Origin: a virus
Taxonomy: Duplodnaviria; Heunggongvirae; Uroviricota; Caudoviricetes
DNA length: 44,694 nucleotides
Strand: one strand, 5' to 3'
IMG/VR virus record: IMGVR_UViG_638341196_000008
Position numbers and translations under genes: made by a program. Below the pieces are notes generated by a model. The model worked only from the letters and a program-made list of their open reading frames with translations, was not told where the DNA came from and ran no database searches. Shown here piece by piece: positions 4,559 to 17,161 of the stretch (position 1 is the stretch's first letter; each line of letters starts with the position of its first letter).

Positions 4559-5668
4559 TCACTCTGTTTCCGCTATCCATTCCGGGATTTTTGCCTCAAG
4601 CTCAAGCTGCGTGGTAAAGCCGCTGTTATCAATGGTGTGCTCGACTTTCGCAATAATCCAGTCCTGATTATCAATCTCGCTTTTAAATCCTGTTACCGTG
4701 CCATGCATTTCGGGGTAGAGTTCTGCGCGTCCACGTGCCAGTGTGATGGAGAACGCTGCGGCTCCGCGTTGTAGCTGCTGCCACTTTGCCGCCGCTGCGC
4801 GTCTTGCTGCCTGCTCGTTCTGATAAGTCTTGCGTAACACAAACACATTGCCTTCCGCGCCTTCCATATAATCACCTTCACGGCTGCTGCTTTTCTCCTT
4901 TTTCGGTTTGGGTGGTTTGCGGCGTTTCACGCTGACTTTTTTCTTTTTCCCATAGTTAAGATCAAGCCAGTAGGCGCGCACCCCCGTATACGCCTCGCGG
5001 TCAGCAATGCGGAACTGATGGCGATCGCCGCTGCTGCGTGTGATGGCGAACGATGGCAACGGCTGGCCCTGTGCGTTCACGCCACCACCTGGCATGATGA
5101 ATAACAGATTGCCGCTTTTTACCGTGGTGATTGCGCCCAGCATTTCCGCCATGCGCGTAAGGAAGGACATGTCGCTTTCTTCGGTCTGGTCGGCGTGGTC
5201 GATTTCGATCTCCATCAGCATTTCGCTGATTTGCGGTTTCAGACCGTACCGATGAGCGATGGCAGATACCACGCGCTCAACGGTCACATCATGCCAGGAT
5301 ACTTCATGTTTAACGTTAAATTCATCCCGAAAATCTGCGCTTCTGGCTGAAACAGTCAGCCTGTCCGGCGGTCATTCGTGAGCGATTTCATCAACAATGT
5401 AAGTGCCTTTTTCTGTCAGCGGTTCTCCTTTCCAGCCAATGAGAACCGTCAGGCGCGCGCCCCGTGGCGGTAGCTGCAACTGACCATCCGCATCATCCAG
5501 CGTGATGGTGAGCTGGTCCGCCTCAAATCCCCGGTTGTCGGTCAGTGACAGGCTCATCAGGCGCTCTGCCACGCCTGACAGCGCTTTACCCTCCGCGAGA
5601 ATATCAAAATCCGGCATTTTCACGGGGTCTGTGCCCTGACTGAGCAATTGCATGGTGGTGTCGGTCAT
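4559..5668 (-). pseudogene. D: P2 gpD-like tail protein interrupted by an in-frame TGA at 5372-5374
   Basis: ORFs 5372..5800 and 4559..5287 are in the same frame (start offset 87 nt); hand translation across the gap reads ...DEIAHE*PPDRLTVSARSADFRDEF...; SD GGGAGGG before ATG at 5668. Confidence 0.7.
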
Positions 5669-5825
5669 CTGTTCCCTCCCTGTGCGGCATGGTCGCATGT
5701 GCGTGCGGAGGGGGTTACTGCTTTTTGTTGTCGCCGTGGCGGGAGAACGGCGCAGGGGTGAGATTACGCGCGTGGTGGGTGATGATTGTTGCCGAATCAT
5801 TTAACGGATACAAGGGGCTGAAGCT

Positions 5826-7010
5826 ATGAGTGAAACTCGTTTTCATGGTGCCCGTGTTACGGAAAATACCGACCTGGTAACAGCGATTAACGATGTTGAT
5901 TCCAGCATTATCGGTATCGTGGCAACGGCGGATGATGCGGACGCGAAGCTGTTCCCGCTGAACAAGCCCACACTGCTGACCCGCGTCAATGACGTGCTGG
6001 GAAAATGCGGGACAACGGGGACGCTTTATCGTGCGCTTAAGGCCATCGCAGACCAGGTGAGCACAAAGGTGATCGTCGTTCGCGTGGCTGAACACAAAGA
6101 AGAAGACGGAAAGACGCAGGATCAACTGGTTATCGGTGGTTCTGAGGATGACGGCAGCTATACGGGGATGTATGCGCTGCTTGTTGCAGAGCAGGATGAA
6201 AGCATCGGATACCGTCCGCGTATTCTGGCCGCGCCGGAGCTGGACACGGAGGCGGTAACAAAATCCCTGTGCGTGATTGCGGGTAAACTGCGCGCGTTTG
6301 TGTATGCCTCATGTCACGGCTGTAACACGATGGCTGAGGCGATTATCTACCGCCAGAAATTCAACGAACGTGAGGTGATGCTTCTGTGGCCGGATTTTAT
6401 CGCTTACAACCCGAAAAGTGGTAAAAACGAAACGTTCCCCGCGCCTGCTTATGCGTGCGGCCTTCGTGCGTATATTGACCATGAGCAGGGCTGGCACAAA
6501 TCGCTGTCCAATGTTCCGGTTAAAAATGTCCTGGGCATGTCAAAACATGTTTTCTGGTCGTTACAGGCCGAGGACAGTGACGCCAACAGCCTCAACAACA
6601 AGGAAATCACCACCATCATTCGCCGCAACGGGTTCCGCTTCTGGGGCAACCGCACACCGGAAACGAACGCCTACATCTTTGAGGTGTATACCCGAACCGC
6701 ACAGGTGCTGGCTGATTCAATTGCGGAAGCGCAGTTTGAAACCATCGACAGTCCACTGACACCTGCGAACGTGAAGGATGTTATCAGCGCCATCAGGGCA
6801 AAACTGGATTCGCTGGTTACTGCCGGGAAACTGATTGGTGCGGAGTGCTGGTATGACGTGGTGGATAACGGCACCACGGATTTACGTCAGGGACGTGTGC
6901 GTATTCGCTACAAATATACGCCCGTTCCGCCACTGGAAGACATGGAGCTTTACCAGACGTTTACTGATGAATTCTTTGGTCCCGCATTTGCGGTGCTGGG
7001 AGGTGCCTGA
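5826..7010 (+). CDS. FI: Tail sheath protein (P2 gpFI-like)
   Basis: 394-aa ORF, length and sequence typical of contractile tail sheath; followed by tube gene. Confidence 0.85.
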   Translation: MSETRFHGARVTENTDLVTAINDVDSSIIGIVATADDADAKLFPLNKPTLLTRVNDVLGKCGTTGTLYRALKAIADQVSTKVIVVRVAEHKEEDGKTQDQLVIGGSEDDGSYTGMYALLVAEQDESIGYRPRILAAPELDTEAVTKSLCVIAGKLRAFVYASCHGCNTMAEAIIYRQKFNEREVMLLWPDFIAYNPKSGKNETFPAPAYACGLRAYIDHEQGWHKSLSNVPVKNVLGMSKHVFWSLQAEDSDANSLNNKEITTIIRRNGFRFWGNRTPETNAYIFEVYTRTAQVLADSIAEAQFETIDSPLTPANVKDVISAIRAKLDSLVTAGKLIGAECWYDVVDNGTTDLRQGRVRIRYKYTPVPPLEDMELYQTFTDEFFGPAFAVLGGA

Positions 7011-7520
7011 TGGCTGTACCAAAACATCTTCGCTTTTTTACGTTGTTTGTGGATGGTGAAAACGAAGTGGGCAAAGTGACATCCGTCACGCCGCCCAAAC
7101 TGACGCGCAAAACCGACAGCTATCGTGGTGGTGGCATGATGGGGGCGGTAAGTATTGATCTCGGTCTGGACGACTCCGCGCTTGATGCGAGTTTTGTCAT
7201 GGGGGGAGCTGTTCGTGCGCTGTTCCTTAAATATGGCGGCACGATTGACGGCACGCTGCTGCGTTTTGCGGGTGAATACTACACCGATGCAGAAAGCGAT
7301 CTGTATGAAATCGAGATGCGCGGGCGTGTGACGGAAATTGATATGGGGAAGCCAAACAGGGCGAAGCCACATCACACACTTACGCTGTCAAAAACACCTA
7401 CTACAAGCTGAGCGTTAACGATCGCCCGCTGTGGGAAATCGACCTGTTGAACCACATCTACCGGAAGGACGGCAAGGACATTGTGCCTGACCGTATCCGT
7501 TCCGCGCTTGGGCTTGGCTG
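7010..7520 (+). pseudogene. FII: Tail tube protein (P2 gpFII-like) with C-terminal frameshift
   Basis: ORF ends at 7411; the conserved C-terminus (...YKLSVNDRPLWEIDLLNHIYRKDG...GLG*) continues in another frame to 7520. Confidence 0.7.
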
Positions 7521-15816: not shown

Positions 15817-15818
15817 GC

Positions 15819-16349
15819 TTAATCGTCCGGATAAATGGTAATGACTTCACCGTCGTAAGTTGCTGCCGCCGCGAAAATATCCCCCGGGATCTCCTGAATG
15901 ATATTCAGCCCTGTCATGTGGCGGCTGACCGGGCGGGCATCAGCAATCAACCGCTCCATTTCCAGATACATTTCCTCCGTCACGCCACTGTCCAGCGTGC
16001 CGACTTCAACGGTAAATGTTCCCGGTTCTCCGCCGAACTCCCACCACTCAGACACGCGAATGAGGTATCCCAGCGGCTCAATGGCCCTGCGCAGTGCGCT
16101 GATGGTCCCTTTGTGTCGGTGTATCAGCCATGCATCACGAATCACCTGTCGCTTTGTCTCTTCCGGCCAGTTGCGATCCCAGCGGTCAACGGAAAACGCC
16201 CAGGCGAGATAAGGCAGCAGGTGCACCGGGCAGGTGTCCGGCGACCACAGCGTGTTGAGGTCTACCGGAATGTCTGTAATGCGTGTTCCGACTGCTTCGG
16301 CACAACGCATGAAACTGCTGGCTGATGGCGGTAACAGTGAATTACTCAT
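15819..16349 (-). CDS. I: Baseplate assembly protein gpI-like
   Basis: Start set at ATG (MSNSLLPP...) overlapping the J stop; about 176 aa. Confidence 0.75.
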
Positions 16350-17161
16350 TGCGCCCACCTTCGCTGATGGTAAATGACTCACAGCGCGCCGCCTGTATGT
16401 CGCTGATGGCCATATTCTGTGTGGGTTCGATTATCTCCACGCGTTGCACGCCGTGCACATGCAGTGCGGCAGCAATGGCGGACAACGCCACGTCCTGACC
16501 GATAAGCCCCTGTTCAGCCAGCCACTTCCTGAATGACGATTCTGGCGCTCTGTACCGTCAGGCGGTCGGCCACCGGGCGGGTATCCTCTGCATTCAGAAC
16601 GGCGCGAACGGTATTAAGCAACGCCTCCGTTGCTGTGCCGTCGCCTTCAGTGGACAGGATGGAAACCGTCACACAGGCCGGAGACGGACTGATAGCCCGC
16701 GCATCGCGCACCAGACCGCTGGCGCTGCGGGCAAAATACTCGTATGCACCTGACGGGCCAGCAACACTCAGGCCGTCGTACGCCCGCTGCGCCCGCAGTC
16801 TCAGCGAGGTGTCGCTCTCCATCACCGCGTCGGTGGTATCCGTTGCCGGAGTGATAACCAGGCGCTTTGTGTTCATATTGCCCGCGAGGTTGTCCAGGTT
16901 TGTCCCTGAACCGTGGCTTAACATACAGGCGCGTGCGCCCTCATTGACCCGCTGGCGTAACAGCATTTCACGAAACGACATGGTTTGAGCGATAACGTTA
17001 AGGGGTTCCGATTCCAGCTCCAGCGCGGCGGAAACGGCTTCACGCTGTTCGGCGGGATAGGACGCAATCATCATGGCCTTTGTGTCAGCCAGAATTGCTT
17101 CAAAGTCAGGCTCCGCGATGATGGCGGGTTCCGGTAACTGGGAAAGGTCAACGGCGGGCAT
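16342..17161 (-). pseudogene. J: Baseplate protein gpJ-like with internal deletion/frameshift
   Basis: N-terminal 215 aa in one frame ends at 16514; conserved C-terminus (...GLIGQDVALSAIAAALHVHGVQRVE...) lies in another frame; about 35-40 aa appear missing relative to P2 J. Confidence 0.65.

Follow-up and report, generated by a model that had tools for sequence, protein, structure and literature searches.

A defective P88-like prophage with lesions in tail genes, a truncated gene A, and three insertion sequences

IMG/VR virus record IMGVR_UViG_638341196_000008 is a stretch of 44,694 nucleotides, referred to here in full as the window, and nearly all of it is a P2-like prophage of the Peduoviridae with relatives in Xuanwuvirus and Gemsvirus, as seen in the open reading frame (ORF) listing and by megablast. 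When this prophage was compared with functional relatives, at least one essential gene was found to carry a loss-of-function mutation, the genes concerned being D, FII, J, tfa, and A. We consider it very probable that the element is a cryptic, decaying temperate phage of the P88/phiSM type, undergoing routine decay in a Shigella-type genome rich in insertion sequences (IS). In P2, D, FII, J, and A are essential and Tfa is needed for fiber assembly. Because of these requirements, the prophage would be expected neither to replicate nor to make tails, and it almost certainly cannot produce infectious particles. The initial annotation, which described a defective prophage with several independent inactivating lesions and considered particles unlikely, was therefore supported: the lesions occur throughout the lineage, and gene A, the link between C and int, and the early operon were also hit by IS elements.

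The relatives were identified by megablast. Positions 4000-18000 matched Citrobacter phage Shae_phiSM (phiSM), Escherichia phages 500465-2, 503458, and P88, and many Escherichia coli prophages at 93-95% identity, with coverage of 74% at 95.1% identity for phiSM and 56% at 92.9% for P88. The head, packaging, and lysis half was ~96% identical to these same phages. The collinear set of late genes, together with this high identity, points to a P88/phiSM-type P2-like prophage of the Peduoviridae. The annotated relatives used for comparison were phiSM, phage 500465-2, E. coli O22:H8 str. 154 (two loci), O55:H7 DEC5B, and P88. phiSM is a spontaneously released, plaque-forming phage (PMC6456863), and P88 is an inducible, lytic-competent P2-like phage (PMC5285337).

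The exact prophage was absent from the complete E. coli genomes searched, in which the best match was ~96% identical. Exact-protein look-ups led to DNA that was 99.9-100% identical in CP026824, CP027027, AFFZ01000072, AMJQ01000456, AAMJ02000010, and UYIS01000011, as well as in several newer draft assemblies and SRA-derived contigs. The sister plasmid record NZ_CP027028, next in accession to the chromosome CP027027, is labeled Shigella dysenteriae E670/74, and we take the AAMJ and AFFZ prefixes to be those of S. dysenteriae strains 1012 and 155-74. From this accession adjacency and these prefixes, the host chromosome is most likely of the S. dysenteriae type.

Lesions in the tail genes

Each lesion was defined base by base against at least three intact relatives. 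The affected tail genes are as follows.

4559-5800, minus strand: gene D (tail/late control D) pseudogene, nonsense change GGA to TGA at 5372-5374
7010-7521, plus strand: FII tail tube pseudogene, -1 frameshift in the G run at 7345-7348
12183-12760, minus strand: tfa (tail fiber assembly) pseudogene, 1-bp deletion and amber codon
13690-15816, minus strand: H tail fiber gene, 3'-terminal +1 frameshift, with a plus-strand T7 run at 13702-13708 versus T6 in E. coli relatives
16342-17161, minus strand: J (baseplate) pseudogene, 77-bp out-of-frame deletion

Four of these genes had already been singled out in the initial annotation, and its calls of an in-frame TGA in D, a C-terminal frameshift in FII, an internal deletion with a change of frame in J, and a frameshift plus an amber codon in tfa were all confirmed. 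Its list of lesions needed correction elsewhere, since it included E/E' wrongly and missed both the 3' frameshift of H and the truncation of A at 40934.

Gene D has the length and frame of an intact 1242-nucleotide gene, and the only in-frame TGA is the one at 5372-5374, where phiSM, 500465-2, and str. 154 all have GGA (Gly). A start codon at 5668 (369 amino acids), as called by PGAP in relatives, was considered in place of the one at 5800 (413 amino acids), but the TGA truncates the product from either start. In FII, the run has four Gs versus five in three relatives; the frame shifts at codon 113 of 170, and the ORF ends at 7411 to give 133 amino acids versus 170. The tfa deletion falls between 12730 and 12731 (CGGACC to CGGCC), outside any homopolymer, and the amber codon is a TGG to TAG change at 12465-12467. 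The junction of the J deletion lies in ACGATTC (16536-16542), and in the intact relatives 7-bp GAATCGT repeats bound the segment that is deleted here, a pattern that looks like the signature of slipped or illegitimate (microhomology) recombination. The deletion changes the frame of J, and the ORF stops at 16514 after 215 amino acids versus 298. This exact truncated 215-amino-acid product was indexed in 102 blocks of the assembly collection.

The lesion in H is of a different standing. The frameshift replaces the conserved last 11 amino acids with KHRI and removes the ATGA overlap with the adjoining macro-domain gene. The tract is T6 in CP027027, where H is intact (715 amino acids), and in the error-prone CP026824, while nine other assemblies have T7. 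Either slippage has recently produced a polymorphism in H, or some of the records are in error at this tract. H also contains imperfect tandem repeats of ~130 bp at 14750-15300, ~85% identical, which encode repeated 40-amino-acid units, and the number of these units differs from that in relatives (708-719 amino acids vs 598).

To establish how widely the lesions occur, an exact probe for each was searched in 14 loci from ~13 independent assemblies. Among the assemblies that cover the respective sites, the D TGA allele was found in 8/8, the FII G4 allele in 12/12 with no G5 variant seen, the tfa deletion and amber codon both in 11/11, and the J junction in 6/6. These assemblies differ from the window by 0-9 single-nucleotide polymorphisms and therefore represent distinct isolates. 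Since the mutant allele is present in every covering independent assembly, the five fixed lesions (D, FII, tfa deletion, tfa amber, and J) are not sequencing errors, and they are older than the diversification of the lineage.

These counts bear directly on the explanation that the lesions are sequencing or assembly artifacts and the prophage is actually intact, which the initial annotation had named as an outcome that would overturn it. Two of the lesions do lie in homopolymers (FII G4 and H T7), the length of the H tract is not uniform across the assemblies, and the related assembly CP026824 is full of homopolymer errors. In addition, short reads cannot orient the segment between the 2.7-kb inverted repeats described below, and its orientation varies between draft and complete assemblies. 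However, the D TGA and tfa TAG are substitutions, a point already raised in the initial annotation against errors confined to homopolymers. The base missing from tfa lies outside any homopolymer, and J has lost 77 bp in a deletion bounded by microhomology. The D, tfa, J, and FII lesions were the same in all covering assemblies, including complete genomes and SRA-derived contigs. This agreement already refutes the artifact explanation for these four genes, and we regard it as highly unlikely for the prophage.

Another possible explanation is that tails are still made because the lesions are bypassed by recoding or phase variation, that is, by read-through of the D UGA and by a change of frame, ribosomal or through slipped strands, in the G run of FII and the A run of H. 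The D stop has a UGA-C context, strains have either T6 or T7 in the H tract, and the neighboring tail-operon genes E and E' normally use a programmed -1 frameshift (PMC3091744). The 77-bp deletion in J, the tfa deletion with its amber codon, and the truncation of A could not be bypassed in this way, however. Furthermore, FII G4 is fixed in all 12 covering assemblies, and the intact relatives need no recoding at the D and FII sites. Bypass therefore appears extremely unlikely.

The E/E' pair itself is undisturbed.

7577-8115, plus strand: E (7577-7951) and the overlapping -1 ORF E' (stop near 8113-8115), both intact

E and E' were 98-100% identical to their counterparts in relatives, without stops (tblastn). 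The initial annotation had reported that the pair lacks a recognizable slippery site, presumably having looked for TTTTTTG, the slippery site of P2 (PMC3091744). This was not borne out. Only the P2-type TTTTTTG is absent: the window has GTAAATTTTATG at this place, while P88 and 500465-2 have AAATTTTTTG, which adds TTTTTTG. A candidate slippery heptamer, A_AAT_TTT, is found at 7894-7900 in the E frame; it fits X_XXY_YYZ and is conserved in the functional phage phiSM. The shift region, GTA AAT TTT ATG, is base for base the same as in plaque-forming phiSM. Reading in the -1 frame meets no stop from a point upstream of 7894 until the one near 8113-8115, and the predicted E+E' product has 179 amino acids. 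Judged from the sequence, the candidate shift site appears undamaged, and the non-P2 site is native to this phage lineage.

Insertion sequences, gene A, and the early region

The right part of the prophage holds the following features, to which the left attachment core is added.

2266-2285, no strand assigned: attL core AAAATCCTTGTTGATGAAAA, left prophage boundary, between flk and phage cargo; recurs in the near-identical contig L024
30510-33227, plus strand: ISSfl3 (IS66 family), left copy, 2718 bp, 99.5-99.7% identity to annotated ISSfl3, termini GTAAGCGCCCC
33228-40934, no strand assigned: early region, inverted versus the native order, 98.7-99.3% identity to the uninterrupted relative L006, orientation opposite to parM and int
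33298-33615, minus strand: C repressor, in the early region, intact
33729-34016, plus strand: cox, in the early region, intact; the early operon is also on the plus strand
34244-35574, plus strand: IS2 (IS3 family), 1331 bp, 99.1-99.6% identity to annotated IS2, 5-bp target duplication CAACC
40935-43652, minus strand: ISSfl3, right copy, inverted, truncating A on one side and abutting int on the other
43690-44694, plus strand: integrase, intact, 334/334 amino acids, 100% identical to E. coli 1442, separated from C by ISSfl3

Three IS insertions had been proposed, and they were identified as two identical, inverted copies of ISSfl3 and one IS2. The ISSfl3 copies are 100% identical to each other over 2718 bp. 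Besides their near-identity to the annotated element, they have GTAAGCG termini, tnpA-tnpB-tnpC, an 8-bp target duplication, and IS66 Pfam domains. The 8-bp sequence ATTTCTCC stands immediately to the right of the left copy (33228-33235), and its reverse complement stands immediately to the right of the right copy (43653-43660); in L006, it is a single 8-bp site. IS2 is intergenic within the early operon.

One ISSfl3 copy cuts the replication endonuclease gene A at 40934/40935, after codon 762 of 940. The remainder of A is absent, and in comparison with L006 a total of 550 bp is missing, which consists of 535 bp of A and 15 bp of the 16-bp spacer after its stop. The other ISSfl3 copy lies between the repressor gene C and int.

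Two inversions had also been proposed, and only one of them could be retained. The opposition between D, FI-FII-E-T-U, and V-W-J-I-H is native in P88, phiSM, and all relatives. In the relatives, hok, ogr, and D lie on one strand and FI-FII-E-E'-T-U on the opposite strand; the order continues with tfa/H-I-J-W-V-S-R-lysis-X-L-M-N-O, P-Q, cargo, parR-parM, A, early genes, cox, C, and int. The layout of the window, with D and ogr opposed to the FI-U block, is identical to that of phiSM, 500465-2, str. 154, DEC5B, and P88. Since phiSM and P88 are functional, this shared layout is native and not an inversion of a working ancestor.

The inversion of the early region at 33228-40934, on the other hand, is real but varies among assemblies. 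The inverted orientation was found in the window and three drafts (AMJQ, AFFZ, and AAMJ), and the native orientation was found in the complete genomes CP026824 and CP027027 and in a 1.4-Mb contig, UYIS01 (loci L021, L023, and L025). A segment flanked by inverted repeats of 2.7 kb cannot be oriented from short reads, and the 7.7-kb inversion is therefore ambiguous, representing either a genuine polymorphism or an assembly choice. The truncation of A and the separation of int from C hold in both orientations.

The two ISSfl3 copies of the window share an 8-bp tandem duplication, CATACAGG (~31035-31042), which splits tnpA into 161 and 72 amino acids, and tnpC is apparently split as well (123 and 429 amino acids). 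Both copies of E670/74 are without the 8-bp duplication (tnpA 224 amino acids). That the copies are alike within a strain and unlike between strains suggests gene conversion between them. The idea that the tnpA duplication tracks the state of the inversion was rejected, since tnpA is split in the same way (161 and 72 amino acids) in UYIS01, which is not inverted.

The prophage is inserted between flk and pdxB, and its integrase is 100% identical to an E. coli prophage integrase at pdxB. Flanking att core repeats accompany the integrase: in L024, the 20-bp core recurs after int, at a distance of ~180 bp that takes it just beyond the end of the window, and attR itself is outside the window. On the host side, the major facilitator superfamily transporter gene yfcJ (window 1-1172) is a pseudogene with a 7-bp deletion (CTGCTCT) near 882, which shifts the frame compared to the intact 392-amino-acid E. 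coli gene. Its neighbor flk shows 100% identity at the protein level. The yfcJ frameshift and the IS load fit a pseudogene- and IS-rich Shigella context.

Intact genes, cargo, and the course of decay

Many of the phage genes have escaped damage. In tblastn searches with the proteins of relatives, FI, T, U, I, W, V, S, R, all lysis, head, and packaging genes, ogr, C, cox, int, and the small early genes were full length. Those outside the early region are as follows.

4256-4516, minus strand: ogr late-gene activator, intact, 86/86 amino acids, 98.8% identity
5826-7010, plus strand: FI tail sheath, intact, 394/394 amino acids, 98.5% identity
8102-11410, plus strand: T tape measure (8102-10909) and U (10922-11410), intact, full-length tblastn matches, no stops
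15819-16349, minus strand: I (baseplate), intact, 176/176 amino acids, 98.3% identity
17165-27000: W, V, S, R, lysC, lysB, endolysin, holin, X, L, M, N, and O on the minus strand, then P and Q on the plus strand, full length, no stops

Because the remaining genes for structure, packaging, and lysis have kept their full length, recent stochastic decay is favored over low-quality sequence. The cargo genes of the window are also intact.

2432-3662, minus strand: VasI/TagO-like protein (2432-3325) and zinc-ribbon membrane protein (3330-3662), intact, Pfam VasI 3.9e-25 and Zn_Ribbon_1
3924-4064, minus strand: hok/gef-family toxin gene, 46 amino acids, intact, tblastn 46/46, 97.8% identity, no stop
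11567-12139, plus strand: hexapeptide-repeat (serine O-acetyltransferase-like) gene, intact, 190/190 amino acids, 98.9% identity
12769-13671, minus strand: macro-domain gene, 300 amino acids, intact, 300/300 amino acids, 96.7% identity, Pfam Macro 9.5e-19
27436-30448, minus strand: cargo block of two unnamed ORFs, an XF1762-family gene, an unnamed ORF, a ClpX-type zinc-finger gene, parR, and parM, all intact in the window
29173-29484, minus strand: parR, intact
29489-30448, minus strand: parM, intact in the window

The VasI-like and zinc-ribbon genes have a low G+C content (0.38-0.41) and are also present inside the phiSM phage genome. The hexapeptide gene gave a weak Pfam Hexapep match, under the curated cutoff, and is annotated in relatives as serine O-acetyltransferase. 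The macro-domain gene lies between H and tfa and, in intact relatives, overlaps the H stop codon (ATGA). The C-terminal ~130 amino acids of its product have no Pfam match and contain His-x-His-like motifs (SGAHSHGSS...GTPTHT) that resemble the H fiber tip; the protein could be a fiber-associated or injected ADP-ribose-processing protein. A variable slot between parR and the portal gene (27436-29109) holds five small genes, of which the XF1762-family gene has a weak Mom-like match (E=1.3e-4).

The retention of intact cargo had been taken in the initial annotation as a sign of selection on accessory functions. In its full form, this explanation holds that the prophage is a domesticated remnant kept for hok, parMR, the macro-domain, acetyltransferase, and VasI-like genes, and immunity through the C repressor. 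Every cargo gene in the window has its full length, as does the repressor, several E. coli prophages keep the genes for the macro-domain protein and the acetyltransferase at the same position, and the prophage with both att cores is retained across the lineage. However, from six lesions in 20.3 kb of structural genes, ~1.7 would be expected in the 5.8 kb of cargo, and the zero observed is compatible with chance (P≈0.18, not significant). Approximately 15 kb of intact genes that are not cargo (head, packaging, lysis, FI, T, and V) are lesion-free as well, so that intactness alone is no signal. A 23-bp tandem duplication, CATCACGCGCTGGTCAAATCAGG, shifts the frame of parM in CP026824 and CP027027 (L021, 15056-16038; L023, 15060-16042), while the gene is intact in the window and four other assemblies. 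A PADLOC scan of 10 cargo proteins also gave no credible match to a defense system, the only hit being a marginal one to DarG (E=0.007) by the macro-domain protein. Selection on the cargo was thus not supported by these data, and domestication seems unlikely.

Several points weigh against routine decay in a Shigella-type genome. In E. coli, UGA is a leaky stop when the next base is C, and trace amounts of full-length D are conceivable. The FII and H lesions are in homopolymers and can revert. The name of the host organism depends on one adjacent accession and on the prefixes of others. Finally, the six structural lesions are all in tail genes, while the 7.3 kb of head, packaging, and lysis genes has none, an asymmetry with P≈0.07 by gene length.

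This last point could mean that the decay is not random and that the element is either a domesticated tail-less remnant, retained for immunity, cargo, or capsid/packaging functions, or one whose tail genes act as reversible contingency switches. The lesions are confined to tail, baseplate, and fiber genes, and two of them are in homopolymers, FII G4 and H A6/A7, of which the H tract is strain-variable. Selective inactivation of the tail genes was nevertheless rejected as a supported claim, because P≈0.07 is not significant and the distribution is suggestive at most. We consider non-random decay of either kind very unlikely.

Under routine decay, the following course can be proposed. After integration, the prophage would have acquired ordinary loss-of-function mutations, namely the nonsense mutation in D, the frameshifts in FII and tfa, the tfa amber codon, and the microhomology-mediated deletion in J, with the slippage frameshift at the end of H arising in some strains only. 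IS2 would have inserted into the early operon. In the simplest history of the ISSfl3 copies, one inserted between C and int, generating the ATTTCTCC duplication, and a second, inverted copy came to lie at the A/parM boundary with the loss of 550 bp. Homologous recombination between the inverted copies may then have flipped 33228-40934 in part of the lineage. Without A, no replication would be expected upon derepression, and without D, the tube protein FII, the baseplate protein J, and the fiber chaperone Tfa, no functional tail would be assembled. IS2 and ISSfl3 in the early region probably disrupt transcription of the early genes and int. The element would persist as a passive chromosomal passenger in which the repressor, lysis, head, and cargo genes have simply not yet been hit. 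Repressor-based immunity, hok, and cargo expression may still be possible.

For annotation, the element should be entered not as an inducible phage but as a defective P88-like prophage that has three IS elements and in which D, FII, tfa, J, A, and, depending on the strain, H are pseudogenes. As an example of prophage decay in a Shigella lineage, it is clean and datable and shows an early stage, in which point lesions are joined by IS insertion, an adjacent deletion, and inversion between IS copies. Two traps for a reading from sequence alone were also corrected, as neither the strand layout of FI-U and D nor the non-P2 slippery site is damage, both being native. Beyond annotation, these findings matter little.

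Comparison with known phages and cryptic prophages

The closest known systems are phiSM (OR565851; Xuanwuvirus) and P88 (KP063541; Xuanwuvirus P88), which have the same gene order and strand layout as the window, including parMR-A-early-cox-C-int. They are 93-96% identical to it at the nucleotide level over the late region, and the E/E' shift region is that of phiSM. phiSM and P88 are inducible and plaque-forming (PMC6456863, PMC5285337), whereas in the window copy D, FII, tfa, J, A, and, in this strain, H are inactivated and three IS elements are present. A further difference lies between U and H, where phiSM, P88, and 500465-2 have a DNA invertase and alternative fiber-tip/tfa cassettes. The window (11420-13690) is without these; together with the str. 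154 and DEC5B prophages, it has the hexapeptide acetyltransferase gene, a single tfa, and the macro-domain gene at this site instead.

The window shares with P2 the late genes Q, P, O, N, M, L, and X, lysis, R, S, V, W, J, I, H, FI, FII, E, E', T, U, D, and ogr. The -1 frameshifted E+E' product, which is predicted here, the rolling-circle A protein, and the Cox/C/Int switch (Pfam families) are also common to both. In P2, FI-FII-E-T-U-D share a strand with V-W-J-I-H, whereas the native arrangement of the window lineage places the FI-U block on the other strand. The slippery site of P2 is TTTTTTG (PMC3091744), and the candidate in the window is A_AAT_TTT. Unlike P2, the window lineage carries parMR and hok.

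The cryptic prophages of Shigella and E. coli, for example those of K-12, are likewise resident prophages that show point pseudogenization and, through IS elements, insertion, adjacent deletion, and recombination between IS copies. As in IS-driven decay of this kind, the neighboring host gene, yfcJ, has decayed too. Compared with the K-12-type cryptic prophages, decay is at an early stage here: ~36 kb of phage DNA is left, and the att cores, int, the repressor, and the head, packaging, and lysis genes are intact.

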